64,000 nt of DNA from a virus (IMGVR_UViG_3300028603_000002:107909-171908); one strand, 5' to 3'. Positions 4,319 to 19,549 are shown, counted from the first letter of the stretch. The notes: generated by a model not told the origin, from the sequence alone. A program made the numbers and translations.

Positions 4319-4379
4319 CCTTGCAGCTAACATCCATATAAACTGTACATAAAATAGCAGAAATTAAAACAATAACATT

Positions 4380-5469: not shown

Positions 5470-5690
5470 GCTTTACTCCTACTATTCCAGTTACAATCCA
5501 CTTCGCCTCCACTTCGCCTCCGTTACACTCCGGCTCAGTATACATATCTTCAAATCTATTCCACTTTACTCCTATTATCCCAGTTACACTCCGGCTCAAT
5601 ATACATATCTTCAAATCTATTCCACTTCACTCCAGTCACTTTACTCCTATTATCCCAGTTACACTCCGGCTCAGTATACAAACCTTTGTT
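5470..5690. repeat. three imperfect tandem copies of a ~75-90-bp unit
   Basis: CTTTACTCCTA(C/T)TAT(T/C)CCAGTTACA...CTCCGGCTCA(G/A)TATACA at about 5471, 5563 and 5639. Confidence 0.8.
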
Positions 5691-5722
5691 ATACCCGTAG
5701 TACACAAATAAACAATGAAATA

Positions 5723-7099: not shown

Positions 7100-7648
7100 T
7101 TAGCTTTTGATTATTACCTGGTCAACGCCCAATTTCTCGGCTATTTCCTCCATTGTAAGCTCCATTATAATTTTGGGCGGAGTGTATTTGTACTCGTCGG
7201 TGTAGAATAGATCGTCAATGCTACCTTTGATGTACTTATCTGCCTTCTCGGGCGCCAAAACTGAATCCCGCGAGATTATTCCGTCCTTTTTGGCAAATAA
7301 ATATAGAAGGTGCTTGTTTTCGCTGACTGAGTCGCGACCATATAACCAACGATACCCCAACTGAATAAGCCTCACCTGAATAGCTCTTGAAAGTTCAGCG
7401 GTAGGCACATTAAACACATAGCCGCCGATTGAAGGTAATTCAATTATTTCAGCGTTGGCTTTCTCTACTTGACGCAATGTGTAATTATCGAATTCCCCGT
7501 CAATAACTCCGTAATACCTGTAGGAATCACCATCAGATTTACAAGAGGTTCCTACAAGGTGGCGTGTATCAAATCCCCGACTTTTCCAATACTCAATGAC
7601 CTTTGCCCCGTGGTCGGGCGTTAGTGCTTCAATTACTTGGTTTTTCAT
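7100..7648 (-). CDS. hypothetical protein, paralog of 4380-4913
   Basis: Shared N-domain; C-terminal ELTMEEIAEKLG motif. Confidence 0.75.
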   Translation of the reverse strand: MKNQVIEALTPDHGAKVIEYWKSRGFDTRHLVGTSCKSDGDSYRYYGVIDGEFDNYTLRQVEKANAEIIELPSIGGYVFNVPTAELSRAIQVRLIQLGYRWLYGRDSVSENKHLLYLFAKKDGIISRDSVLAPEKADKYIKGSIDDLFYTDEYKYTPPKIIMELTMEEIAEKLGVDQVIIKS

Positions 7649-8160
7649 TTTACAAAAGTTTTTGTTCGTTCTAAAATCTCATCCCCCAACATCCTGCGAA
7701 CAATATCGGCAGTTTGGCGTTGGTTGGCCGCTTTGTCTGAGGCAGTACGGTCAGCAGCAGCAGCAGCAGCAGAAGAATTACCACAAACAGCACAATAAGC
7801 AGCATCAGCAGCAGCAGAACGATAACCAACAGTAACAGCAGCAGCAGCAGCAGCACGATAAGCAGCCTGCAACTCTTCCTCCGTAAGCAATCCCTCTCCG
7901 TAGGCAATAGCCGCATCAACACCCTTTATGCTGCGCGCATCTTTCATCAAATGCCTGACCGTGTTCGCACAGTGTCCTGCGCAGCCGACTAATTTACGGC
8001 GATAAACGCCCGCTTTCTTCGCCCACCATAGCAGCCAATCGCCACGATGGCAGTCGGCTAAGGTTTGGGTAGGGGTGCGGTCGCCAAGCCAGTCAATGGC
8101 ATCTTCGCAGGCAGGACCTAAATGGCCTTCGTCTGATAGTAGAAATTCTCTGAATGTCAT
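7645..8160 (-). CDS. Imm5-like / Ala-rich helical phage protein
   Basis: ACEDAIDW...CHRGDWLLW...AAAAA...QTADIVR; GCA repeats encode poly-Ala. Confidence 0.65.
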   Translation of the reverse strand: MTFREFLLSDEGHLGPACEDAIDWLGDRTPTQTLADCHRGDWLLWWAKKAGVYRRKLVGCAGHCANTVRHLMKDARSIKGVDAAIAYGEGLLTEEELQAAYRAAAAAAVTVGYRSAAADAAYCAVCGNSSAAAAAADRTASDKAANQRQTADIVRRMLGDEILERTKTFVK

Positions 8161-8244
8161 AATATAGATTTAATTACAATGTAATTTAGCAAGAAATTCC
8201 ATTTATCACAAATTGTGGGTGCGCAATTTACTATTTAAAATGAT

Positions 8245-8282
8245 AAAAAAGAAGGTACACTACCTTTATAGTTCACCTTCTT
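8245..8282 (-). terminator. possible intrinsic terminator
   Basis: AAGAAGGT...ACCTTCTT imperfect hairpin preceded by an A-run on the plus strand. Confidence 0.4.
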
Positions 8283-8305
8283 GAAAACACGACCCGACAA
8301 AACTT

Positions 8306-8581
8306 TTACAGTCGGAATTGGCCGATGAGTTCATCAGCATGGTGACACTCAGCATGACAGTCGCAATTTCCAACACAGCTGTTTCTTGCGGATAGCCAGA
8401 GATGATTAATCAATGGCAATTGGGAAGATTTCGACAACCCTGATAACAAGTCATTCATGCTAATTACTAACCATGATTTACTATCATGAGTTTGTACATG
8501 AATTTCTTCCACTATGTCGTCATCTAACACAAACTTAATCCTGTTACCATTATCTTTACATTCATAAATTACTTGTTCCAT
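8306..8581 (-). CDS. hypothetical protein
   Basis: 91-aa ORF. Confidence 0.55.
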   Translation of the reverse strand: MEQVIYECKDNGNRIKFVLDDDIVEEIHVQTHDSKSWLVISMNDLLSGLSKSSQLPLINHLWLSARNSCVGNCDCHAECHHADELIGQFRL

Positions 8582-8610
8582 TTCTTTTTGTTACCTTAAA
8601 TTTCAAAATT

Positions 8611-8700
8611 GCCAGTAGGGTGAGGGTCGAACTCACAATATAGCTTCTGAATAAAGTGGGTTGCCAATTATTATCCTTTTCCCTAACGCTCCTAGACCAG
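8611..8700 (-). tRNA. tRNA-like remnant (T-arm only)
   Basis: Minus strand GTGAG-TTCGACC-CTCAC is a perfect T-arm; no convincing full cloverleaf. Confidence 0.25.
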
Positions 8701-8767
8701 TCTTATACTTTGTTACTTGATGCTGGTTTTAATTAAGCCTTTCTAATTAGAACCTTTTGATTATACT

Positions 8768-8800
8768 ATAAATATAAGAAAGATCTTTCAAAGTACCAAA
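8768..8800 (-). promoter_or_regulatory. early promoter
   Basis: Minus strand TTTGGTACTTTGAAAGATCTTTCTTATATTTA. Confidence 0.6.
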
Positions 8801-8842
8801 TTATTTTGAATAAACTTACGTAATCAGTTTGATGGTACAGCA

Positions 8843-8872
8843 CTGGAGCTCCTAAGTGGAGCTCCAGATTTT
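8843..8872. terminator. perfect 10-bp hairpin at the left end of the cassette array
   Basis: CTGGAGCTCC-taagt-GGAGCTCCAG. Confidence 0.55.
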
Positions 8873-9011
8873 AAAAATATATGGTATGGTGCAGAGTTGC
8901 AAACTCTGTTTTGCCAACAAAAGAACTATGGCTAACAGCACCTAACCTCAATAAATTATCACGGTATTCATCGGCTGTAAAGTTTTCAAAGTTTGTGGTT
9001 TCTATATTCAT
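8871..9011 (-). CDS. small cassette ORF (46 aa) reading through an attC left arm
   Basis: Manual translation MNIEPQTLKTF...LRLGAVSHSSF. Confidence 0.35.
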   Translation of the reverse strand: MNIETTNFENFTADEYRDNLLRLGAVSHSSFVGKTEFATLHHTIYF

Positions 9012-9035
9012 TTGTACTAATTTTAAGTTGAAGAT

Positions 9036-9057
9036 GTTAAGCTTATACGGATGTTAG
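9036..9057 (+). repeat. attI-like repeated site, copy 1 of 17
   Basis: GTTAAGCTTATACGGATGTTAG; other copies at 9600, 9959, 10228, 10476, 10826, 11481, 11789, 12083, 12356, 13130, 13390, 13733, 14208, 15611, 16326, 16666. Confidence 0.8.
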
Positions 9058-9284
9058 CAAACATTTTCCAACCCACACCGCACTTGAATATTTCCAAGTT
9101 CCAATTCTCTTTCAATATCTTCAATATCTCTCCAACAATCTACTCCAACTGTATAACTATACCATCCACAAAAATCTTCAATACTATCATCAAAATAACC
9201 TTCTGAATATATTTCATATTCAAAACCATCGACAAATTCTTCTATTGTCGGTATTCTATATCCTTTTCTTAATTCTTCTGCCAT
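9054..9284 (-). CDS. cassette gene, hypothetical
   Basis: 76 aa; stop codon lies inside the GTTAG core. Confidence 0.75.
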   Translation of the reverse strand: MAEELRKGYRIPTIEEFVDGFEYEIYSEGYFDDSIEDFCGWYSYTVGVDCWRDIEDIERELELGNIQVRCGLENVC

Positions 9285-9297
9285 CGCTAAAAACGTT

Positions 9298-9391
9298 TGC
9301 TAACAAGGTATATATGCAATACCCTATTAAGGTTTGTACTAAATTTTAAAGTTTGGTGCAAGGGTGCTGCATATATACCCAACCGTTAGCC
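9298..9391 (+). repeat. complete attC-like site
   Basis: GCTAAC...GGTATATATGCAATACCCT / AGGGTGCTGCATATATACC...AACCGTTAGC (17/19 paired). Confidence 0.8.
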
Positions 9392-9607
9392 ACCATTTGA
9401 CGACCGTTGTACTTCGACTGCAATTTCTTCAAGCAATTCAAGTATTTCATTTGCCCAAGTGTGGTCTATGTTTATTTTTGATACCTGAGTGTCAAATCCG
9501 AGCTTTTTAGCAACATCCATATCGTGTCGCATTTCGCCCTTGAATCTCCTGTATTCTTCTTTTTTCTTTGTGATGAGTTCTAATACTTTTTCCATAACCG
9601 TTATCAT
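9386..9607 (-). CDS. cassette gene, hypothetical helical protein
   Basis: 73-aa ORF. Confidence 0.65.
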   Translation of the reverse strand: MITVMEKVLELITKKKEEYRRFKGEMRHDMDVAKKLGFDTQVSKINIDHTWANEILELLEEIAVEVQRSSNGG

Positions 9608-9622
9608 TTATACAGGTGTTGA

Positions 9623-9913
9623 CTACTCACCAATATAGTGTGTTTCAAAATCATAACCATCATTTACCTTTTGAAGTTTACCTTCGTCAAGATTTATGAT
9701 TTCTCTTATATTTTTAAGTTTAGTGTCAGCAATTTCTTTTGTGTGTATTTCAATATCAATACCTCCAGAACCGTCACCATCAATTTGAATTGGCAATAAT
9801 CTGTTTGCACCAACATCACCACAATATTGTATTTTTCTGAGAGCAATCATAAAATCTTTTAAATCTTCATCAGAAATTGCTGTAATTCGCAAGTCAATAA
9901 ATTTTCGTTCCAT
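9623..9913 (-). CDS. cassette gene, hypothetical
   Basis: 96 aa with a DGDGS motif. Confidence 0.7.
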   Translation of the reverse strand: MERKFIDLRITAISDEDLKDFMIALRKIQYCGDVGANRLLPIQIDGDGSGGIDIEIHTKEIADTKLKNIREIINLDEGKLQKVNDGYDFETHYIGE

Positions 9914-9995
9914 ATTGTCGTTTTAAGTCGTTAAAATTATGTGCGCATAGCCATAACCGTTACCATTTATACGGGTATTGTAGCACATACGCTCA

Positions 9996-10199
9996 CTACT
10001 TTTTCGGTTTCAATTTACCGTCTGCACATTTAGGGCAGTATATTGTTTGATGTTTTGTAATTCTCCACCCTTTTTTACTCCACGCACTGGCAGCATCATA
10101 CGGGTCGCAATCCATTTCTCTTCCAATAGTTCTACACTTATGGCACATTATTGTGTTTTCAGTAGTACAATGTTCGTATAGTTCATGTATTTCATCCAT
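9996..10199 (-). CDS. cassette gene, Zn-ribbon protein
   Basis: CHKC...GW...CPKC. Confidence 0.7.
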   Translation of the reverse strand: MDEIHELYEHCTTENTIMCHKCRTIGREMDCDPYDAASAWSKKGWRITKHQTIYCPKCADGKLKPKK

Positions 10200-10250
10200 C
10201 TCCGTTCGTTTTAAGATGTTAGTAATAGTTTATAAGGGTATTATCGGCAA

Positions 10251-10463
10251 TTATTCCCAAGTAATTTCCACCATTTTTGCATCTTCCATCATTTTCATTA
10301 ATCCGCAAAATTCTCTCCAATGATATTCAGTTATTGTTTCACCTATACTATTACTAAGTTTATTTAAACAGTTGTATATCTCTGTATTAATATAACTACC
10401 GCTAACAACAGGTGTACTTGATGCTTGTGTTTCTGCCATTTGTAAGTTCGGTTCTTTTTTCAT
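10251..10463 (-). CDS. cassette gene reading through an attC left arm
   Basis: PVVSGS is the antisense translation of ACTACCGCTAACAAC. Confidence 0.65.
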   Translation of the reverse strand: MKKEPNLQMAETQASSTPVVSGSYINTEIYNCLNKLSNSIGETITEYHWREFCGLMKMMEDAKMVEITWE

Positions 10464-10508
10464 GTTGATTAGTTGGTTGGTTTATACGGGTGTTATAGGC
10501 AATTGCCA

Positions 10509-10757
10509 CTAAAGTATCTCTCTACATTCGGGACAATAATTTTCAGCAATTTGTTGAACCCATTTTTTATTTTTATGTTCACATCGTGGCAACTGTTCGC
10601 TTTGCCGTACAACATTGTATAAATCCAATTGCTTACGTGCTTCAATCAATTGAGCTTCCAACCAATCCTTGTAGTTGTCGAGGTCAAAGTGTATGTCTGT
10701 TTCACCAACCGTTTCAGGATGGTCAAGTCTAAATTCTTCTTCAAATGTATATCTCAT
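10509..10757 (-). CDS. cassette gene partly encoded in an attC loop, C-terminal Zn ribbon
   Basis: YNVVRQSEQL...CEH...CPEC. Confidence 0.7.
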   Translation of the reverse strand: MRYTFEEEFRLDHPETVGETDIHFDLDNYKDWLEAQLIEARKQLDLYNVVRQSEQLPRCEHKNKKWVQQIAENYCPECREIL

Positions 10758-10803
10758 AATTTCTGTTTTTTAATTCGCCCTACGCATACAATCGACCGTT
10801 AGC
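10605..10803 (+). repeat. large attC-like site containing coding sequence
   Basis: TACAAC-ATTGTAT ... ATACAAT-CGACCGTTAGC arms. Confidence 0.6.
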
Positions 10804-10855
10804 GTTCAGCCTATCGCTGCGGGTAGTTAAGTTTATACGGGTGTTAGGTGTAATG

Positions 10856-11134
10856 TCAACACCATTCTACGCTAATCACTTTTAGTTTACACCCATCAAC
10901 ATCATTTATTACATGCCCTTCCTTGGGGTGAGAGTCTGTAATTGATATTGGTTCATTTGTCGGTTCACACCCCATTTTGAACAATAGTCTTGAACCTTTA
11001 GGTAAAAATGCTTTTGAGGTCTTTGTGATGAACCAAGTTTTTAACTTTTCGTTACCCCAAGCAAATCGAACAACGCTACACCTAACATCCGCTATAGTGC
11101 ACGTATGTTCTGTTGTTTTTGTAATATTTTGCAT
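10856..11134 (-). CDS. cassette gene starting inside an attC loop
   Basis: HTCTIADVRCS is the antisense translation of the attC left arm. Confidence 0.65.
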   Translation of the reverse strand: MQNITKTTEHTCTIADVRCSVVRFAWGNEKLKTWFITKTSKAFLPKGSRLLFKMGCEPTNEPISITDSHPKEGHVINDVDGCKLKVISVEWC

Positions 11135-11199
11135 AACTCAAAGTTTATTTCTGTTTGGATGCGTTATTGAAGCCACGCACCATAGCTTTACCGTTAGGA
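11080..11199 (+). repeat. complete attC-like site
   Basis: CCTAAC..GCTATAGTGCACGT / ACGCACCATAGC..ACCGTTAGG. Confidence 0.75.
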
Positions 11200-11203
11200 G
11201 AAG

Positions 11204-11461
11204 TTAAAGAGAAAACCAATCACTTTCCTCTTGTCTACTCAGAAGCTCCTCAACAGCCTCTTTGGTAGCAGGACAAGCGGAGTAAAAACAATTCTTTGCT
11301 TTCACCTCAAGTTGCTTCAGCTTTTCAAAGTCTCCGTCCACTAATTGAAAAAGAAACAGAGTTTGCTCGTTGCTGTGATTAGTCCGATCGGTTAACCAAT
11401 TAAGTCGTTCTTTATCAAGCTCGTACTTATAGGTATCTTTGCGTCCATACTTCAATTCCAT
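11204..11461 (-). CDS. cassette gene, hypothetical
   Basis: 85-aa ORF. Confidence 0.7.
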   Translation of the reverse strand: MELKYGRKDTYKYELDKERLNWLTDRTNHSNEQTLFLFQLVDGDFEKLKQLEVKAKNCFYSACPATKEAVEELLSRQEESDWFSL

Positions 11462-11511
11462 ATTCTATTAGCTTTACGATGTTACTGTTTATACGGGTGT
11501 TAGACGCAACG

Positions 11512-11769
11512 CTAAGAAACCAACCTACCTTCGACATTTTCTTTCATTTTGATTAACTCATCCCTATAACCAGAACCACCATCTTGGTTGGAATAGGGCA
11601 TTTGCAAGTGTTCATTTATTTTTACCAACAACTTAGCTGTTTTCACTTTGTTATCCTGATGCTGGTCAATCCATTTATTGTATTTACGAATAACTTTGTT
11701 TAGTTTGGTTCTACCTTCTTTCCACCAAGATATACCTACATTTTCATCCCACTCTACTATTTTTTCCAT
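11512..11769 (-). CDS. cassette gene, hypothetical
   Basis: 85-aa ORF. Confidence 0.7.
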   Translation of the reverse strand: MEKIVEWDENVGISWWKEGRTKLNKVIRKYNKWIDQHQDNKVKTAKLLVKINEHLQMPYSNQDGGSGYRDELIKMKENVEGRLVS

Positions 11770-11817
11770 ATTCCGTTCGCTTTACGATGTTACTGTTTAT
11801 ACGGGTGTTGTGTGTAA

Positions 11818-12012
11818 TTAAAGCAAGCCATCGTTATTTTCGCCCATCATCGTATCAACGGCTTTTTCAGCATCTTTAGCCGCACTTTTAAGCAGCTTCT
11901 TTGTGTTTTCAGGTTCGTTTCCTGTGGCTACATCTACCACGTCTTTTACAATTGCAACAGGTGTAAGTGCTGTTTTTACTGCTGCTGAAATTACGTTTGT
12001 TAAGAATCCCAT
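11818..12012 (-). CDS. cassette gene, small amphipathic protein
   Basis: Likely start MGFLTNVISAAVKTALTPVAIVKDVVDV at 12012 (track ORF extends to 12174). Confidence 0.65.
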   Translation of the reverse strand: MGFLTNVISAAVKTALTPVAIVKDVVDVATGNEPENTKKLLKSAAKDAEKAVDTMMGENNDGLL

Positions 12013-12112
12013 TTGATTAAAATTAACTGCTGCCAACAATGTAGTAAGGCACAGGCAGCGTTTGTGCTTATCGCTGTGGGTGGTTGAGTTTATACGAGGG
12101 GTAGGTGTAATA

Positions 12113-12316
12113 CTAAAGATTCCTACTAACCAACCCTGTTCCATTACACCAAGTACAATCTTCTTCATTACCAAAATCGTCTATTTCAATTTTACCGCCA
12201 CCCCAACAAACAGTACATTCCAATAATTCCTTAGTGGAAGTACTGCTGCCAACAGCACCTAAATCGCTATTGGCGGTGCTGTGGTTGTTCTTACTTTCGT
12301 TCTTACTTTCGTTCAT
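12113..12316 (-). CDS. cassette gene, DnaJ-type Zn-finger (CxxCxGxG x2)
   Basis: CTVCWGGG and CTWCNGTG; LGAVGSS comes from an attC arm. Confidence 0.7.
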   Translation of the reverse strand: MNESKNESKNNHSTANSDLGAVGSSTSTKELLECTVCWGGGKIEIDDFGNEEDCTWCNGTGLVSRNL

Positions 12317-12380
12317 TACGGTTTAAGTTTTACCGAGTTTCCTAAATTGAGGGTAGTTATGTTTATACGGGTGTTGTGCT

Positions 12381-12785
12381 TCATGCAAGGAAACTCCCGT
12401 GCTTAATTATGAAGTACAGTTTATTAGGGTCTCCGCCTAAATCAGGCTTGCCCCATCCGATCTCAATTCCTTTGTGTTCCATTTTCAATATCCTTTCCTT
12501 ATCAGTTGATTTTGGATAACCCAATGTCATTGTGTTTGTAAGGAATGGCTTAAAACCAATCATACTTCTTTTCAATTTATCCCCTGCAATACTTGACAGA
12601 TAGGCGTTTATAGATTGTTTGTCCAAGTAATCCCAATCATATCCAGACGTGTACTTAAAAACCTTCTTATAGTCAAATACAAGTCTTTTAAACCAGTAAT
12701 CGTTTATGTCTCGATAATCTTCGGTTTTTACGCCCGATTTGGTCATGTCGAACCATTTTTTTTTAAGTGATAATTGCAAATTCAT
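12381..12785 (-). CDS. cassette gene, ASCH/PUA-like domain protein
   Basis: LSLKKKWFDMTKSGVKTEDYR...TLGY...GKPDLG. Confidence 0.75.
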   Translation of the reverse strand: MNLQLSLKKKWFDMTKSGVKTEDYRDINDYWFKRLVFDYKKVFKYTSGYDWDYLDKQSINAYLSSIAGDKLKRSMIGFKPFLTNTMTLGYPKSTDKERILKMEHKGIEIGWGKPDLGGDPNKLYFIIKHGSFLA

Positions 12786-12807
12786 TTTGTATCAGTTAAG
12801 CACGAAA

Positions 12808-12936
12808 GCACAACAATTGCTATAAAACATAGGGCGTTCGTGCGGTTATTAAAGTGTAGGGTTGTTTTTCAGGTGTTCGGTGTTTTCGAACAATTCGGCT
12901 ATCTATACCCTACGTTTCATGGCATAGCCGTTAGCG
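12808..12936 (+). repeat. complete attC-like site
   Basis: GCACAAC..TGCTATAAAACATAGGG / CCCTACGTTTCATGGCA..GCCGTTAGC (14/17 paired). Confidence 0.8.
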
Positions 12937-12937
12937 T

Positions 12938-13126
12938 TCATTTTGACGACGCTCTCCGTACTTCTTCATTAAGCACATCGTAATTGTCTTTAATGTACGC
13001 CTTTACATCGCCACTGCATTTGTTATTGTCATACAACCAAATCAGATAAGACGCAGGGACATTTATCATTTTATAACCTTGATATTTTCCCCAAGGCATA
13101 GGGCTTTCATCTGTTAAGTTTGCCAT
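12938..13126 (-). CDS. cassette gene, DUF3820-like
   Basis: Likely start MANLTDES at 13126; MPWGKYQG...VPASYLIWL. Confidence 0.75.
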   Translation of the reverse strand: MANLTDESPMPWGKYQGYKMINVPASYLIWLYDNNKCSGDVKAYIKDNYDVLNEEVRRASSK

Positions 13127-13163
13127 TTTGTTTAAGTTTATACTGGTGTTGTAGCACATACGA

Positions 13164-13379
13164 TCACTGCACTTTTGGTCTCCAATGTGTGATTTCGTAA
13201 TCAACATCACCATACTGTCTGTAATCGTAATGTCCAATTCCTGCCTCAATCCACCAAGTATCCCCCAAGTAGTAGCCAACAAGTATCTCATCATTATAGT
13301 CTTGCCTTAGCTCACAATCAATAGGCTCATCGTTTGCGTCTAATTCAGGCAGTCTTTCATTTACATTTATCCAATTCAT
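13164..13379 (-). CDS. cassette gene, DUF551-like
   Basis: MNWINVNERLP...ITHWRP. Confidence 0.8.
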   Translation of the reverse strand: MNWINVNERLPELDANDEPIDCELRQDYNDEILVGYYLGDTWWIEAGIGHYDYRQYGDVDYEITHWRPKVQ

Positions 13380-13417
13380 ATCAGTTCACGTTAAGTTTAT
13401 ACGGGTGTTAGCAGCAA

Positions 13418-13657
13418 TTATGCCCTTTTAGGATAGTGCTTCATACATTTGAAACAAGCCATTTCATCATATAGTGGTTTTAACTCAACATTGCAATCAG
13501 GGCATAACTGTTCGCTTTGCCCTACAACATCATGTATGTGTAAGGCTATGTTTAGTGCTTTATCAGCAAGTTTGTAAACAGTTGTAGTTCTAGCAAGCTG
13601 TTGTGTTTGCATTTGATGTTCCTTTATTTCTTCAAGTATCTTAATTATATCTTCCAT
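13418..13657 (-). CDS. cassette gene partly encoded in an attC loop, Zn ribbon
   Basis: LHIHDVVGQSEQLCPDC...CFKC. Confidence 0.7.
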   Translation of the reverse strand: MEDIIKILEEIKEHQMQTQQLARTTTVYKLADKALNIALHIHDVVGQSEQLCPDCNVELKPLYDEMACFKCMKHYPKRA

Positions 13658-13712
13658 TTCTAATAATGTTTAGTGTGAATATTCGCCCTACATATACACC
13701 CGGCCTTTAGCG
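13519..13712 (+). repeat. large attC-like site containing coding sequence
   Basis: TACAAC..TGTATGTGTAAGGC / GCCCTACATATACA..GCCTTTAGC. Confidence 0.65.
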
Positions 13713-13764
13713 TCCAGCCTATCGCTGTGGGTGATTAAGTTTATACGGGTGTTATGTGCAAGCA

Positions 13765-14154
13765 CTACTGACCTGCTTCTTTATCAAGTTTTTTATAATG
13801 TCGTATAACATACGCAAGTTTATCTCTAAAATTAACCCTTCGCAATTGTTGAATAATGTCGCTGAATTTTTGTGCTTCATTATCAGGTATCATCGAAATT
13901 AGTATATCATCGTGTTCGCAATGTATAGTTTCCATAAAATCATCTTGTGTCAAGCCTTCATCACAATGGTCATACATTTTTAATCTTGATGCTATTTCAG
14001 CACAATATTTGTGAGTTTTCCAGTCGTAAACTTGACCATCGTATTTGTGAGTAGATTTTATATAAGTATCACCTTTAGGTATTCTACACGCACAAAAATT
14101 ACAACTATGTTCTTTAATGGCTTTCGTTTCTTTTGGGTATGTTAATGTTTCCAT
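13765..14154 (-). CDS. cassette gene, Zn-binding hypothetical
   Basis: KAIKEHSCNFC..IPKGDTY...WKTHKYC. Confidence 0.75.
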   Translation of the reverse strand: METLTYPKETKAIKEHSCNFCACRIPKGDTYIKSTHKYDGQVYDWKTHKYCAEIASRLKMYDHCDEGLTQDDFMETIHCEHDDILISMIPDNEAQKFSDIIQQLRRVNFRDKLAYVIRHYKKLDKEAGQ

Positions 14155-14238
14155 ATTTTAATCAAATTTTAGTTGTTAATAACCCGCTACTACATATATC
14201 GGATGCGGTTAAGTTTATACGGGTGTTGTAGGCAAGCT

Positions 14239-14484
14239 CTACTTACATCTGAAGTGAGTGAGTACTGCCATCGGATGTTCATCTTCATATCTACATTCCG
14301 TACCATCATCAAACCTACACAGGCAGTTTCGTTTTGCGTACTCATTGAATATTGATTCATTACCTTCAAATTCGAGCCAGCCACTAACAGCAAATAAATC
14401 CAATATTCTGTCAGCGGTATTGGCAACGCTTTCACCTATTATACACTTGTTTAATAGGTCGATAATTTGTTCTCTTTTTTCCAT
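14239..14484 (-). CDS. cassette gene, hypothetical
   Basis: ILDLFAVSGWL reads through the attC left arm GCCAGCCACTAAC. Confidence 0.65.
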   Translation of the reverse strand: MEKREQIIDLLNKCIIGESVANTADRILDLFAVSGWLEFEGNESIFNEYAKRNCLCRFDDGTECRYEDEHPMAVLTHFRCK

Positions 14485-14503
14485 ACTGTCTTTATTATTT
14501 AAG

Positions 14504-14719
14504 TTAGTTGTAATGTCTCCATACTAAGCCACTCGCCTTTATATTTACCAGTGTAAAAGGGTATATTGCAAAAGCTCTCCAAAAGAAGGAAACTTCGGCA
14601 TCAAGTGCGCTTAGTATCCCGATAGTGGCGTACCACATAATCCATAATCCCACTATAAGCACCACCGCTAACAATCTACGAAATGCATTCCTATTGGTTT
14701 CTTTATAATTTTCATCCAT
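14504..14719 (-). CDS. small membrane protein
   Basis: Two hydrophobic segments; contains CCACCGCTAAC. Confidence 0.6.
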   Translation of the reverse strand: MDENYKETNRNAFRRLLAVVLIVGLWIMWYATIGILSALDAEVSFFWRAFAIYPFTLVNIKASGLVWRHYN

Positions 14720-14766
14720 GATTCTATGTTTTGTGTTTATTTATTAAATTCTATGGTTCAACGCAT

Positions 14767-14997
14767 CTAATACTCTTCCGTTGGCAGAAATACAAGTTGG
14801 CCGTTATCCCATCCGCTCAGGTTAATTTCAATCGGCAAAAGTGACTCCTTGCCGTCATATATGCCGTGCGTGTATTGATGCAAAAACGCTAACTGCTCAT
14901 TCTCTGTCAACTCGCGGGTAACCTTAAACGACCCAGAGCCTATCGTTTCGCCAGTGTCACGTTGGTAAACTTTGAATCTGTATGCAAATCTTTGCAT
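14767..14997 (-). CDS. hypothetical protein
   Basis: 76-aa ORF. Confidence 0.6.
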   Translation of the reverse strand: MQRFAYRFKVYQRDTGETIGSGSFKVTRELTENEQLAFLHQYTHGIYDGKESLLPIEINLSGWDNGQLVFLPTEEY

Positions 14998-15015
14998 TCT
15001 AATTTTTCTCTAATG

Positions 15016-15393
15016 TTAGGCACAAGCACTACCGACACGCTCCAAAATAGCATCTGCGTGACAAGGAGAAGAAAGCGAGCAAAAACACGCTAAATCCTTT
15101 CCTTTTAGTTCGGTAATGCTTGGCGGAGTTGGCAAATAAGGTGCAATTGCTTTTAATTCACCATCAAGCCATCGGCCGTATAAATCAACAATATCTTTTG
15201 TTTCAAATCCACCTGAATAACTCCACATTATCCAAGGGTCTAATATTTTCCGATTAGTCGAGTAGCATTGAATAAAGCCATCATGTGTTAATCGAAATGG
15301 ATTTCCCCATTTAGTAGGTCTCCCTACATACTTTGCGTTTTCGGGCATTCTCCATCCCTTTGTTCGCCTTCTTTGTATTCGTTTCATAATCAA
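15016..15393 (-). CDS. DUF4326-like protein
   Basis: YVGRPTKWGNPF...ELKGKDLACFC...CHADAILE. Confidence 0.85.
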   Translation of the reverse strand: MIMKRIQRRRTKGWRMPENAKYVGRPTKWGNPFRLTHDGFIQCYSTNRKILDPWIMWSYSGGFETKDIVDLYGRWLDGELKAIAPYLPTPPSITELKGKDLACFCSLSSPCHADAILERVGSACA

Positions 15394-15399
15394 AATTTA

Positions 15400-15600
15400 T
15401 CACTTATTTGGTAGTTCTGGCAACTCCGTCCAATGAGAAGGGAACACGCTCTCCCCATTTACTACCCATGTTTTGCCATCTTTGTGTAAATGTCCAACCC
15501 TCATTATAGAGTCTTCACCTGTTTCTTGAAGTATTAGCAACACTTCTACTTCCGTATCGGGGGTATTGTAATTTACATCAAACCAAATTGTTTCATTCAT
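15400..15600 (-). CDS. DUF551-like protein
   Basis: WFDV...P...EVLL...SHWTELPELP. Confidence 0.75.
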   Translation of the reverse strand: MNETIWFDVNYNTPDTEVEVLLILQETGEDSIMRVGHLHKDGKTWVVNGESVFPSHWTELPELPNK

Positions 15601-15638
15601 ATCTGTTCACGTTAAGTTTATATAGGTGTTAGCAAACA

Positions 15639-16028
15639 TTAGGTAAGTGATATGTAATATTTTTTCTTTTGATTTTCGACTGCATCAACAAACCAACTTG
15701 GTAAGTTGTATTCAGTACATATTTTTTCAAACTCTATTTTAGGTAAGTAGCCTTTTGCTCTATCTTCTGCATACATTTTTATATGTAGGTTTACACTACC
15801 TTTCGTCTTTAATAGAGTTTTTAACTTTTCAGGTTCACAAGTTGGTTTTATTACACCATTAGTATCATATAGGTAAAAACATTCCTTTGCGGTTTTACCG
15901 TTTTTATCAAATTGTATCAATTCAATTCCTTTTTTATTATGATAGTATTCAGTACCATCAAAAGAAAAAATATTAGATACAGATAAGTACCAATTATAGT
16001 CTCGCTCAAAGTTTTTGCTGTATTTCAT
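15639..16028 (-). CDS. cassette gene, hypothetical
   Basis: Likely start MKYSKNF at 16028; flanked by complementary cassette ends. Confidence 0.7.
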   Translation of the reverse strand: MKYSKNFERDYNWYLSVSNIFSFDGTEYYHNKKGIELIQFDKNGKTAKECFYLYDTNGVIKPTCEPEKLKTLLKTKGSVNLHIKMYAEDRAKGYLPKIEFEKICTEYNLPSWFVDAVENQKKKYYISLT

Positions 16029-16061
16029 AACGTTTGCTAACAAAGTGTATGTGTAATAAGG

Positions 16062-16277
16062 CTACTTATCTACTACCTTTTCAACTTTCAACTCATAAAG
16101 CTCACCTTTGTATTTAAACTGAACTTTTTCTTCAAGCTGTAAAAGGTGTTGAGCTACTGCGCCAACAGCCGTATCTGTTACATCATGTTTTGTTTGCCCC
16201 CAAGTTCCGTTCTTCAAAACTCTTCCAGCAAATAATCTACTCGTTAAAGGTGAGCAACCTACTTTAAAATCTGACAT
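16062..16277 (-). CDS. hypothetical phage protein
   Basis: VGCSPLTSRLFAG...KHDVTD.AV.AVAQHL, a recurrent phage family pattern. Confidence 0.75.
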   Translation of the reverse strand: MSDFKVGCSPLTSRLFAGRVLKNGTWGQTKHDVTDTAVGAVAQHLLQLEEKVQFKYKGELYELKVEKVVDK

Positions 16278-16354
16278 AATCTTTTTGTTTTAATACTGAC
16301 TACTTTACATTCCATATCAGTTTCCGTTAAGTTTATATAGATGTTGACAGCCAT

Positions 16355-16621
16355 TTATTGAAACCACTGCTTAATCTGTTCTGTTCTTTGTTCGATCATC
16401 TCATTAATCTTTGGCAGCAATGGATAATTAGTTTCGTCAATCCAAACAGTTTCAGACTTACCATCTTTGCCTAATATAACTGTCGGAGTTGCTACAGAAT
16501 AAATTTCTGTTCTTTTAGCGTGGAGTTGTTGCAACTGGTTATCGTTCAAGATCGCTTCTGAAATTAAACGGGGGCGAAGAGCGTATTTATTCAATGTGGA
16601 GTTTTTGTCGTTATTGTTCAT
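16355..16621 (-). CDS. cassette gene, hypothetical
   Basis: 88-aa ORF. Confidence 0.6.
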   Translation of the reverse strand: MNNNDKNSTLNKYALRPRLISEAILNDNQLQQLHAKRTEIYSVATPTVILGKDGKSETVWIDETNYPLLPKINEMIEQRTEQIKQWFQ

Positions 16622-16672
16622 TTCGGTATTTCGTTTTAATCTTCCGCGCTGGCATAGCGGATGACGTTAAGT

Positions 16673-16927
16673 TTATCCGGGGTTGATTGTGTCTTGAAAC
16701 TTCTTCCTCAATGCTGACATCATAGCCTCAATAGCCCTGGGCATTTTTTTCACAACTTCATCTTTTGTTCGGCCCTGAACGACAACACCCTTAAGCTCCT
16801 TAATAATTCCTATGAACAATCCGGTTTTCTCATTATGAATTATCACCCCAGTGAAATTCTTGGTTTGTGCTTGTCTTCCCATGATAAGTGCTTTTGATTG
16901 ATGTATGAAATTAATTAGCTTCCACAT
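16673..16927 (-). CDS. HicB-like antitoxin-fold protein
   Basis: ELKGVVVQGRTKDEVVKKMPRAIE; probable start at 16882. Confidence 0.6.
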   Translation of the reverse strand: MWKLINFIHQSKALIMGRQAQTKNFTGVIIHNEKTGLFIGIIKELKGVVVQGRTKDEVVKKMPRAIEAMMSALRKKFQDTINPG

Positions 16928-17219
16928 GTAGTCCGGATTTTTTGAACTTTTTTATAGCATTCCTGAGATTCAGAGCCGTAATGTAGTAGCACTCCTTCCG
17001 GAGAATTAATTTGTTCCGTTTAACGTAACTCCCAGTTAACGACTCTACCGCTATATCCACCTCCTCCAACGGAGCTTCTGTCACTACCCCATCATCCCAT
17101 TGATACACTGTATGCCCAGGCTTCAGTCGTCGTGTACCGATAAAGCGGACTTTTTTCTCCTCCGCGGGGGTAACAATTTGCTGTTCTTGTTTAATTTGAT
17201 CTGGCTTAATCTCCTTCAT
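16911..17219 (-). CDS. hypothetical phage protein
   Basis: 102-aa ORF. Confidence 0.7.
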   Translation of the reverse strand: MKEIKPDQIKQEQQIVTPAEEKKVRFIGTRRLKPGHTVYQWDDGVVTEAPLEEVDIAVESLTGSYVKRNKLILRKECYYITALNLRNAIKKFKKSGLHVEAN

Positions 17220-17291
17220 TGTTTTCCTTTTTTGTCAATGTAACGTGCAATAATTCATGTTTTCATAATTTTATCTTTTTAATTTGTACTA

Positions 17292-17323
17292 TAAAGATAT
17301 GAAAAATATTTCAAAGTACCAAC
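17292..17323 (-). promoter_or_regulatory. early promoter facing into the island and cassette array
   Basis: Minus strand TTGGTACTTTGAAATATTTTTCATATCTTTA. Confidence 0.6.
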
Positions 17324-17449
17324 TATGAAGCGAAAGATGTTTCTAAATTTGACCCGACCGCGGGAAAATTTATAATATCAGGTACAAAGATAAAATTTAT
17401 TGTGTAATTATCGAAATTTTCAATTCAAATAATTTTCCTACATGTTTAT

Positions 17450-17481
17450 TTGGATATCTCCTAAAAATTCATTATCTTTAT
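17450..17481 (+). promoter_or_regulatory. early promoter
   Basis: TTTGGATATCTCCTAAAAATTCATTATCTTTA. Confidence 0.7.
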
Positions 17482-17502
17482 TATGAAATAAAACAAGAAA
17501 CT

Positions 17503-17718
17503 ATGTATTATGTAGAAACAATGATTGATGGTATACTCCATTACAAAACAACACCGCATGGAAATTGGATACCTATTTCTATAGAAGTACTATCACAAAG
17601 GGTGGTAAAAGCGGAAAAAAGAGTATCATTACTTAAAGATCAATTGCAAGAAGCTAAAAGTATACCCAAACTAACTTCTGAAGCTCTTGGGCAATTATTC
17701 ACTGGAAAATCTAATTGA
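17503..17718 (+). CDS. hypothetical protein
   Basis: 71-aa ORF after promoter. Confidence 0.7.
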   Translation: MYYVETMIDGILHYKTTPHGNWIPISIEVLSQRVVKAEKRVSLLKDQLQEAKSIPKLTSEALGQLFTGKSN

Positions 17719-17719
17719 T

Positions 17720-19549
17720 ATGAATAAAGAAGTATCCAAATTAGTACAAGAAATTACAACTGAAAAACACGGTACTATATCTGTGGGTGGTATATTATAT
17801 CGTCGTGAGGACGTATATAAGATTGTTAAAATTGAAGAAACTGAGTGGGGTCCTGTATGTTATTGTATCGATCCTGATGGTGATGAACATAAAGTGTCTC
17901 GCAGTAGTTTACAAGACTATTATCAATACTATGAAGGTGATTTCGATGATCTGGTTAAGAAAGCAATAGCATTGAAACGAGGAGAATTTGATCTAAGTGA
18001 ATACCAGGAACAGTCTAATTCCGAATCAACTCAACTGATGAAGATAGATAAGAAATCATATGAAGTCTTATTATCTGATGTTAAGCGTAGAAGACATGAG
18101 CTTTCTATAATTCAAGCTCATTATCTCAGTATATTAGAAAGAGAAAAACGTAATTTAAGATCTATTATAGATACGTTTAACAAGAAGATTAATAAGTTAC
18201 GGGAGATTATATGGACTATTGAATTATATCTTGGTATAGAGGAGGATATAGTGCGCATTCAACAAGGAGCACCAGCATCAGACGAGGAACCTATACATTT
18301 ATTACAAGCTAGGCTATACATGGATGAAGAAGTTGGAGATCCAAGTGACGGTGGTCTTGATTTCAAAAATATTGAAGATTTCGATAATTGGATGCTTAGT
18401 AAAAGCAAATTTTATGGATTTGAAAATTACAAATTGATAGTACCATTTCCGAAATGTGTACGTATAATGCGAGTAAGGCGGGATCAAAAGGAATACCATG
18501 ATAATCCATGGGTTAACTTCGAAATGAATATCCCGAACATGGAGACGTATATCATTATACGCAACGGTGAGAATATTTACACCATATCTACAACTATGAG
18601 ATTCGATGAAAAGTTATTTCCTGATTCTGATGAATTAGTGAAAATGTACGAGGAGATGGATAAAGATATCAATAATCCAAATATAATCAGTCGCAGCTAT
18701 GATCCCGAAGAAAGGCATAAAAATAAAATTGATGAATTCATGCATACATACCGTAGAAATATGGTCGTAATGCAAGGTTTGCTTGATCGTACCGAGGTTT
18801 TTGGTAATATGTCGGGTAAAGTATCCTTTATGAATGAAAAGTCTGCAGAAGAAGGCAAAATAGTGTTCTTCTACGAGAATCAAGGCAACCAAATTGAAGA
18901 TGGATCTGTCGATCCATTAAAATGGTTTGAAATCGCCAGTAGTAATCCAGTAGAAGGTCAACGAGTATTAGTCATTACTGAATCGGATTGGAAAACTTCA
19001 GAAGAACGTAATTATCGAATATATAACAGATATTTTTCAAATAAATGGGCATATCCAGATGCCATCCGAAACGGTATATATACCTTACATATAGATAAGG
19101 AACATAGAGAATATGGTGAAAATAAAACTGTACTATATGTTAAATATTTGCCGAATGATGAAGTTTACACTGAGTATGGTAGCAAAGAAAGAACCAGAAG
19201 ATTTAGGTGGCGTCTGCATCCTAAAGAGTGTATTAATTTCGATCTTATATCACATAGAAATATCCAATGGGTAGATAATATGCTACATGATAGGAGAGTT
19301 AGAAAACATTATTCGAGATACATGAATACATTAATTGCTCTGAAGAAATACAAAGATAAAGAGTTAGAAGAAGAGTTACCATTCTGTCAACTCATACAAA
19401 GTTACTATCCAAAATTGGATATTGATGAAATCAGAGATTATGTATTTTGGTGGAAAACTAAGAATAAATGGAAGAGATCATTGACAGTAGATGATCAGAA
19501 AGCGATTCGAATGATTAGAAAGAAAATTGAATCAACCTATAAAACATAA
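17720..19549 (+). CDS. large hypothetical phage protein with coiled coil
   Basis: About 610 aa; likely start ATG 17720 (track start 17687). Confidence 0.85.
   Translation: MNKEVSKLVQEITTEKHGTISVGGILYRREDVYKIVKIEETEWGPVCYCIDPDGDEHKVSRSSLQDYYQYYEGDFDDLVKKAIALKRGEFDLSEYQEQSNSESTQLMKIDKKSYEVLLSDVKRRRHELSIIQAHYLSILEREKRNLRSIIDTFNKKINKLREIIWTIELYLGIEEDIVRIQQGAPASDEEPIHLLQARLYMDEEVGDPSDGGLDFKNIEDFDNWMLSKSKFYGFENYKLIVPFPKCVRIMRVRRDQKEYHDNPWVNFEMNIPNMETYIIIRNGENIYTISTTMRFDEKLFPDSDELVKMYEEMDKDINNPNIISRSYDPEERHKNKIDEFMHTYRRNMVVMQGLLDRTEVFGNMSGKVSFMNEKSAEEGKIVFFYENQGNQIEDGSVDPLKWFEIASSNPVEGQRVLVITESDWKTSEERNYRIYNRYFSNKWAYPDAIRNGIYTLHIDKEHREYGENKTVLYVKYLPNDEVYTEYGSKERTRRFRWRLHPKECINFDLISHRNIQWVDNMLHDRRVRKHYSRYMNTLIALKKYKDKELEEELPFCQLIQSYYPKLDIDEIRDYVFWWKTKNKWKRSLTVDDQKAIRMIRKKIESTYKT

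Follow-up and report, generated by a model that had tools for sequence, protein, structure and literature searches.

How are the small genes of a phage array delimited, and could they be cassettes that move singly between genomes? The question is raised by the final 64 kb of a complete virus record of 171,908 bp (G000:C1:107909-171908), the stretch of DNA that was analysed here and that we refer to as the window. The genome encodes phage baseplate and tail genes, and the window holds a long run of small open reading frames (ORFs), array A (Table 1), mirrored by an array of plus-strand genes at genome positions 105095-112251. The original prediction held that between 9053 and 16041 the starts of units running from GTT to GTT are reverse complements of their own far ends, as expected if a recombination site resembling the attC of integrons were contiguous only in an excised circle and were split at GTT on integration. 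Our analysis indicates, with a probability of roughly 0.7, that the interval belongs to an integron-like, site-specific cassette system widespread in Bacteroidota phages, of which it is an array without an integrase; this system is not strictly an integron.

Four genes of the array are bounded by inverted arms

All four of the strong inverted pairs on which the prediction rested were located and proved real and non-random. The pair 9053/9290 is complementary at 14 of 15 positions and 15628/16028 at 13 of 14; 10843/11077 is exact over 10/10 nt and matches at 13/15 across the full arm, a repeat search extending it to 15 nt at 93% (10838-10852/11077-11091); and 12373/12800 consists of nine exact positions, a 1-nt bulge, and then further pairing. 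These arms, 14-15 nt long and of the form GTT...AAC, bound four genes, three of which then have an attC-like palindrome (pal1 to pal3). At position 11, all four pairs have G in the arm close to the ATG and A in the other arm, the rule of the wider family described below. When the two arrays of this genome (21.3 kb) were scanned for GTT-anchored 15-mers with a complement at no more than two mismatches within 120-700 nt, three such inverted repeats were found against 0.23 expected, and none of 200 dinucleotide shuffles reached three.

The pattern was less general than had been proposed. Starts complementary to their own ends were present in only four of about 20 GTT-to-GTT units across 9053-16041, and two weaker pairs put forward with the others, 10240/10392 (11/15) and 14225/14374 (10/15), fell within the background of a 20 x 20 matrix of starts versus bodies. 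Pairs 1 and 4 share the arm GTTAGCAAAC, so that the statement that each pair is specific to its cassette holds only in part. A permutation test of own against other cassettes, ungapped and hence blind to pair 3, found at least 12/15 matches in 3 of 20 own-cassette cells and 9 of 380 other-cassette cells (p about 0.017; about 0.04 for the summed score). Circularising the units and folding them gave a clear result for cassette 1, in which pal1 with its own start formed a single hairpin on the minus strand (-24.9 kcal/mol versus -18.3 with the resident neighbour). For cassette 2, pal2 with its own start formed a whole-site hairpin at a small gain in energy (-15.0 versus -13.9), and for cassette 3 the gain was nil, the long-range stem of pal3 not being formed in the minimum-energy fold.

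The attC architecture, R''(RYYYAAC)-L''-loop-L'-R'(GTTRRRY) over 57-141 bp, is clear in pal1 and weaker in pal2 and pal3; measured between their AAC and GTT ends, the three sites span 9298-9392 (95 bp), 11080-11200 (121 bp), and 12808-12936 (129 bp), respectively. In integrons, the extrahelical bases of the L box set the choice of strand. The L stems of pal1 (GGTATATATGCA / TGCATATATACC) are perfectly paired and have no extrahelical bases, and the asymmetry of the site comes from its G·T/A·C positions and from the unequal length of its spacers (2 and 5 nt). The ORF runs opposite to the R''-to-R' reading and points away from its own palindrome in each of the four window cassettes and, with few exceptions, in relatives.

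Arm pairing is kept in related loci as arm sequence changes

The stems of pal1 (9307-9379), allowing a gap of 30-60 nt, recurred at about 95% conservation in 20 other IMG/VR contigs of 7-640 kb and also in four contigs of metagenome-assembled genomes (MAGs); three of the seven pattern matches in genome contigs (L026, L027, and L030) were set aside as unrelated palindromes. At about 17 of 21 pal1 elements, the 16 nt to the left of pal1 have a reverse complement 177-350 nt away that begins with GTT and lies across one small ORF, and from contig to contig the arm sequence changes and the pairing is kept. A blind scan of the related loci returned 60 GTT-anchored arm pairs versus 2.0 expected (maximum of five in shuffles), in arrays that reach 14 consecutive units.

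In the set of 66 unique oriented pairs, any of the four letters can stand at positions 4-10 and 12-14, yet the two arms match there in 59-66 pairs, figures that are inflated by the selection of pairs at two or fewer mismatches. Beyond position 15 agreement falls to 13-19 of 66, and neither this sharp end nor the fixed wobble at position 11 is created by the selection. At position 11, 66 of 77 unique pairs differ, with G in the start-codon arm and A in the complement of its partner, so that the gene-sense strand carries a G·T wobble where the opposite strand has an A·C mismatch (54/60 pairs). An arm's own partner outscored every other partner in 40 of 48 cases.

Read in the gene sense, the arrays follow a common grammar: a 5' arm, 5-10 nt, ATG, ORF, stop codon, and a 3' arm ending in AAC, then, across the junction, a GGTTG-like spacer, a palindrome, TT, and the next 5' arm. 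The palindromes belong to diverse families with TATATAC-like stems. Pal1 covaries with the R''-side arm (mean identity of 10.45/15) and not with the start of the next unit (7.96/15, equal to background); it therefore travels with the R''-side arm, and the cassette is the GTT-to-GTT unit. No cargo gene of array A had a homologue in any related locus examined, indicating that it is the site, and not the gene, that these loci have in common. The binning of pal1-bearing contigs with Weeksellaceae and Kaistella hints at a host among the Flavobacteriales.

Over 9002-9669, the summed contig depth in four metagenomes was 5-40 times that of the flanks (657 at 9318 in X1), an excess that reflects only the many other contigs with pal1-like sequence. 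One loose contig end in this region (AACGTTATGTGAGATGCTCGG...) is the pal1 flank in a Weeksellaceae MAG contig (L029). For metagenome contigs over the array, uncovered stretches and joints with sides shorter than 30 nt were not counted as evidence. Relatives reached through the neighbouring 620-aa gene were uninformative, being 33% identical and carrying a different, sense-oriented Bacteroidota promoter-like repeat.

Cassettes have exact ends and differ between isolates

Cassettes shared between loci have sharply defined ends. One ORF is common to L014 and L023 and an unrelated ORF is common to L025 and L021, all four loci having the same arms and pal1; in both cases, homology runs from GTTAGC to CCGTTA between unrelated flanks. 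These ends place the crossover at the conserved GTT, to within the triplet. In L057, one cassette ORF is inverted and its arms keep the polarity of the array, which indicates that the asymmetry is a property of the DNA array and not of the mRNA of the gene.

Whole cassettes also distinguish cultured isolates. The Polaribacter phages Freya_1 to Freya_10 (43,978-48,920 bp) carry an array-linked "integrase" (QQV91304), and relative to Freya_1, Freya_10 has an additional 4,921 bp with twelve small genes directly before the recombinase gene, each junction immediately following the AAC that ends a 3' arm. Cassette content is intermediate in Freya_5 to Freya_9, and Danklef, a sister species, shares some units at 97% identity. 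The authors who described Freya regarded the integrase gene as a sign of temperate potential and did not mention cassettes (PMC8776804).

At some junctions, an arm lies within coding sequence. In the mirror array (G000:C1:105933-106095 and 106668-106833), the ATG-side arm is inside the ORF, in frame and 60-80 nt after the start codon, and encodes V-S-N-S (GTT AGC AAC AGT) or V-S-I-S (GTT AGC ATT AGT); the other arm encodes a C-terminal Cys and the stop codon (TGC TAA C). An arm inside the ORF was likewise seen in L019 and in window cassette 2, for which an ATG at 11087 was rejected as an alternative start, as it is out of frame. This placement suggests that in-frame N-terminal extensions may be gained at the junction.

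A XerA-like recombinase adjoins the arrays of relatives

In nine of nine relatives examined (L007, L008, L009, L020, L021, L055, L056, L057, and Freya), the array adjoins a tyrosine recombinase of 265-277 aa belonging to one family. The gene lies directly beyond the last AAC, and neither its end of the array nor its strand, relative to arm polarity, varies. At E<=1e-20, 5,886 homologues of the recombinase were found. The protein is collinear from end to end with archaeal XerA (4a8e and 5hxy), whereas alignment with IntI4 (2a3v) was confined to two blocks that skip about 47 IntI residues, and its TIGR02249 scores of 135-170 bits were below the cut-off of 265 bits. On these comparisons, the enzyme of the relatives is XerA-like and not an integron integrase. 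Searches of the whole 171,908-bp genome of the window phage found no tyrosine recombinase (no PF00589 match), no integron integrase (no TIGR02249 match), and no serine recombinase.

A plain lysogeny integrase is the less likely role for this enzyme because of where it is found. In the Mesonia prophage L055, the recombinase and small ORFs lie within the structural module, between the terminase and portal genes and not at the prophage end, and the enzyme is also encoded on a 180-kb contig with DNA polymerase B and chaperonin genes (L056). On the latter, the array and recombinase are located between DNA polymerase B and a 244-aa gene, homologues of which abut in the window phage.

Several features of the neighbourhood were recorded alongside. 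A protein of 233-246 aa is encoded 3' of the recombinase in three relatives (L033:2073-2813, L035:328-1062, and L056:10807-11541), and a PolB-like 3'-5' exonuclease domain was identified in one of the three. The homologue of this protein in the window phage (G000:C1:51637-52338, 28% identity) is encoded directly beside the DNA polymerase gene, and no array separates the two genes. A truncated recombinase copy is present in L011, a 640-kb viral contig, where a pal1 cassette is followed by a recombinase gene without its N-terminal domain (L011:121-900); its frame opens with the catalytic domain immediately beyond the AAC junction, as would result from insertion of a cassette into or beside a truncated gene. 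On the 112-kb contig of L057, a reverse transcriptase gene (RVT_1; L057:13154-14089) lies 2.3 kb beyond the recombinase.

Most junctions of the window carry a simple site

Most junctions in 9053-16041 are marked not by an attC-like palindrome but by a non-palindromic 20-nt simple site, a motif present in about 22 copies (16 in array A and six on the minus strand in the mirror array). In the gene sense it reads TAAC/ACCCGTATAAAC, where the slash is the junction, with the next ATG 11-29 nt downstream, and ACCCGTATAAAC matches the Freya sequence that follows the last AAC (AAC/ACCCCTATAAC). All ten recombinase-proximal sites have the form AAC/N2-5-(G)TATATA, the first half of a palindrome without its partner, and because this form is shared we read the window motif as a putative duplex site, an attI-like simple or half site. 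Hairpin cassettes 1-4 each lie directly after a copy of the motif, the position predicted if cassettes insert at that site.

At its core the motif resembles TATAAA, but neither of the Bacteroidota-type promoter-like sequences (17284-17322 and 8761-8799) matches it, and no T-run is present in the palindromes. Other viral contigs contained no exact copy of the 20-nt motif, so its sequence is private to the window phage, and megablast of the array against cultured phages gave no match. An ORF-less unit between two junctions occurs four times, at 10798-10842, 13706-13750, and about 12055-12099, and in the mirror array at G000:C1:105093-105140, and may be an empty cassette or a recombination scar.

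Features of the array and its surroundings

The coordinates of the features are collected in Table 1.

Table 1. Features of array A and its recombination-like sites (window coordinates unless stated otherwise).
Feature	Position	Strand	Description
Array A	8871..17219	-	About 27 consecutive small ORFs of 46-134 aa, mostly orphan ORFs (ORFans); from ORF lists
Motif GTTTATACGGGTGTT (15-nt core of the 20-nt GTTAAGTTTATACGGGTGTT)	9041..16345	+	16 copies between array A ORFs, starting at 9041, 9606, 9965, 10228, 10480, 10831, 11487, 11795, 12088, 12361, 13136, 13395, 13739, 14213, 15616, and 16331
Mirror-array motif copy	4329..4343	-	Five further copies just upstream of the window, genome 105095-106831
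ORF-less 45-nt unit between two junctions	10798..10842		Repeat family D4; motif + TACCCGCAGCGATAGGCTGAACGCTAAC
Cassette 1 stop-proximal arm GTTAGCAAACATTTT	9053..9067		14/15 with 9290-9304; A at position 11 versus G in partner, giving G·T on the minus strand
Cassette 1 ATG-proximal arm	9290..9304		R''-like, AAC end; part of the conserved left flank of the pal1 family
pal1	9305..9385		attC-like imperfect palindrome, stems 9307-9325 / 9361-9379; ends in the G of GTTAGCC
Cassette 2 stop-proximal arm GTTAGGTGTAATGTC	10843..10857		10/10 exact with 11077-11086; 13/15 overall, G/A at position 11
Cassette 2 second arm	11072..11086		Inside ORF 10856-11134, in frame (GTT = Val)
pal2	11087..11193		Weak attC-like palindrome (GCTATAGTGC / GCACCATAGC); ends in the G of GTTAGGA
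Cassette 3 stop-proximal arm GTTGTGCTTCATGC	12373..12386		Pairs with 12800-12814 by the "TCG versus CA" bulge-plus-wobble pattern of the family
Cassette 3 ATG-proximal arm	12800..12814		GCACAAC end; complements its own start, not the adjacent GTTAGCG
pal3	12815..12929		Interrupted palindrome (GCTAT..ATAGGG / CCCTAC..ATAGC) before GTTAGCG
Cassette 4 stop-proximal arm	15628..15641		Arm type as in cassette 1; 13/14 with 16028-16041
Cassette 4 ATG-proximal arm	16028..16041		Followed by no palindrome
Promoter-like sequence, Bacteroidota-type	17284..17322	-	Head of array A; repeat family D16; reading based on the consensus
Second copy of promoter-like sequence	8761-8799		Repeat family D16
Terminator-like hairpin	8843-8868		Closes array A; from sequence

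Pfam matches in array A were limited to DUF4326, DUF7446, DUF551, and QSregVF_b. Bacteroidota promoters have the consensus TTTG / TAnnTTTG. At the borders of the gene blocks, there are two pairs of 39-47-nt sequences that are 85-87% identical (5721-5767/17447-17493 and 8761-8799/17284-17322) and that look like duplicated promoter regions of the Bacteroidota type (TTTG ... TATCTTTA). Three tandem copies of a 61-93-nt repeat (GTTACACTCCGGCTCA..TATTCCACTTTACTCC) lie among overlapping plus-strand ORFs at 5471-5708, and a 9-nt periodic, CAG/CAA-rich repeat at 7742-7864, within the region of ORF 7645-8160, probably represents coding sequence of low complexity. No Rfam family was matched in 8000-18000.

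A proposed mechanism and its relation to known systems

We propose that a complete cassette, on the plus strand of the window, would comprise G/TT and about 12 specific nt, one ORF usually on the opposite strand, the reverse complement of the start ending in AAC, and then a spacer of 2-4 nt, an imperfect palindrome, a second spacer, and G. In a circular or single-stranded form, the arms would pair as a 15-bp stem that extends the palindrome to one attC-like hairpin made up of R stem, unpaired spacer, and L stem. Integration would split this hairpin at GTT, leaving the cassette start complementary to its own far end. The reaction is likely to be catalysed by the XerA-like recombinase at the array end of relatives, which would bind to both arms, R and L, and cleave after AAC on the gene-sense ("bottom") strand, the one that carries the G·T where the other strand has A·C. 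The 20-nt motif would be the duplex, simple-site counterpart, with R arm, spacer, and L half-box as in attI. As the window phage has no recombinase, its arrays would be either relics or served in trans by a co-infecting phage or prophage.

Clusters of attC sites lacking integron integrases (CALINs) have been described in virulent phages (Qi et al. 2023, PMC9892861), and in the window phage, too, no integrase lies nearby. One of the attC sites predicted with HattCI in the same study, P12002L_attC1 (Polaribacter phage P12002L, 30003-30058; PMC9892861), is a site of exactly this phage-array family. The arrays resemble integrons and CALINs in their R''(..AAC)-spacer-L''-loop-L'-spacer-R'(GTT..) architecture, in the GTT cassette boundary, in a start that complements its own R'', in a "bottom" strand that folds better, and, in relatives, in lying beside a divergently placed tyrosine recombinase. 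In contrast to integrons, the enzyme of the phage system is XerA-like and is without the IntI insertion of about 47 residues, the 15-bp R stem has an invariant G·T at position 11, and the L stems are without extrahelical bases. Moreover, the phage ORFs are directed towards the recombinase gene and away from their own site, opposite to the usual integron layout, and the window phage repeats an attI-like simple site about 22 times and has no recombinase.

The promoter early stem-loops (PeSLs) of T4-type phages (Arbiol et al. 2010, PMC2839356; Comeau et al. 2014, PMC4122927) are the nearest phage counterpart for the shuffling of genes at intergenic repeats: they, too, are short conserved intergenic elements among small ORFans, with single-gene insertion, deletion, and replacement between related phages, and mini-circles have been reported for them. 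PeSLs are sigma-70 promoters and terminators that recombine by homology, whereas the phage array exchanges at a 3-nt core between unlike sites, has arms that covary on either side of the gene, and is linked to a dedicated recombinase. Xer recombination on a folded single strand is known from the attP of CTX phage, which is used by XerCD (PMC3442271). The mechanism proposed for the arrays shares with this system the action of a Xer-type enzyme on a hairpin resembling a duplex core site, the exchange of one pair of strands, and the resolution of the junction by replication. It differs in that CTX brings a whole phage genome into host dif through host enzymes, whereas the arrays would move single genes within or between phage genomes through a phage enzyme.

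Weighing the cassette system against its rivals

The core of the original prediction, a site that is contiguous only in the circle and split at GTT, is upheld by the covariation of the arms, the exact GTT ends, the Freya differences that fall immediately after AAC, and the recombinase beside nine of nine arrays. Other observations weigh against it. Circles and excision junctions were not observed, the metagenome joints coming from contigs and often being short-sided, and no recombinase of any kind is present in the complete phage genome. The enzyme of the relatives is XerA-like, without the insertion that in integrons reads the folded attC, and the genes are reversed. Most junctions are not attC, and most window units have only the non-palindromic motif, which could be no more than a promoter. 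A clear folding-energy gain from the own end was confined to cassette 1, the fold of cassette 3 ignoring the long stem and cassette 4 having no palindrome, and the arm identities are inflated by pair selection as stated above. Of six sites, P12002L_attC1 was the only one without a verified IntI1 recombinant (PMC9892861). Finally, a wobble on the mRNA-sense strand and a 5' arm 0-10 nt before the ATG may leave room for a role in RNA.

If the arms acted mainly in RNA, the flanks of the start and stop codons in the polycistronic mRNA would pair, enclosing the cistron within a 15-bp helix that contains a conserved G·U and acts in processing, stability, or translational control, and the palindromes would be intercistronic hairpins. 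Such a role would suit the strand on which the wobble is G·U and not A·C in 54 of 60 pairs, the same strand bias inside the pal1 stem, and the position of the arms, the 3' one overlapping the stop codon. That this is their main function nevertheless seems unlikely, since an inverted ORF sits inside arms of unchanged polarity, the 5' arm falls within the coding region in some units, cassette homology stops exactly at the arms beside unrelated flanks, a recombinase is linked to the arrays, and Rfam gave no match. An RNA function is compatible with the DNA model but leaves mobility unexplained.

We consider it slightly less probable again that the units are regulatory cassettes of the PeSL kind, in which the motif would be a phage promoter and the palindromes terminators, recombination would be homologous as in T4-type phages, and the inverted ends would be a by-product. 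In favour, the motif contains TATAAA and precedes 16 start codons of the window by 11-29 nt, motif copies are the points at which contigs from other metagenomes join different units, and PeSLs yield mini-circles and modular shuffling (PMC2839356, PMC4122927). However, exchange takes place at GTT/AAC between palindromes of different families that have no homology there, and homologous exchange within a shared repeat was not found; the covarying arms and the fixed wobble have no part to play in a promoter or terminator, and the motif is unlike the TTTG/TAnnTTTG promoter type that heads the array. Very improbable, by comparison, is the idea that the four genes are miniature inverted-repeat transposable elements moved by a transposase encoded elsewhere. 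It would accommodate terminal inverted repeats of 14-15 nt around segments of 250-440 bp, and two elements with identical ends and different cargo, but none of the four elements has a target-site duplication, and the arms differ freely (39 cores in 48 pairs), which a sequence-specific transposase could not tolerate. The elements are, moreover, always in register with the grammar of the array, and no transposase was seen, none having been searched for. The integron-like cassette system is thus the reading that we prefer.

Implications for phage gene turnover

The integron is viewed as a bacterial device organised around a single specialised integrase, and to our knowledge phages have so far been reported with only a few stray attC sites. 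In the reading preferred here, the logic of the integron, with single-gene cassettes, a site completed in the circle, and an array beside a tyrosine recombinase, would be a regular feature of many Bacteroidota phages and would work with a simpler, Xer-like enzyme. Our literature search found no description of the linked Xer-like recombinase or of the array grammar; its coverage was incomplete, and an earlier description is possible.

We give even odds to a broader proposal, namely that Bacteroidota phages ranging from 44-kb siphoviruses to jumbo phages of 180-640 kb carry a distinct integron analogue, characterised by a compact XerA-like enzyme that has no IntI insertion, a 15-bp R stem and an invariant G·T in its hairpin sites, and duplex simple sites, and use it to acquire single accessory genes and pass them from one phage genome to another; the window array would then depend on an enzyme supplied in trans, and the system would represent either an independent origin or a pre-IntI stage of the integron principle. 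The system is testable in culture, as Freya_1 to Freya_10 already differ by whole cassettes. If true, it would offer a natural comparison for the evolution of integron integrases from Xer recombinases, and a concrete mechanism for the fast turnover of small phage accessory genes, many of which likely counter host defences.

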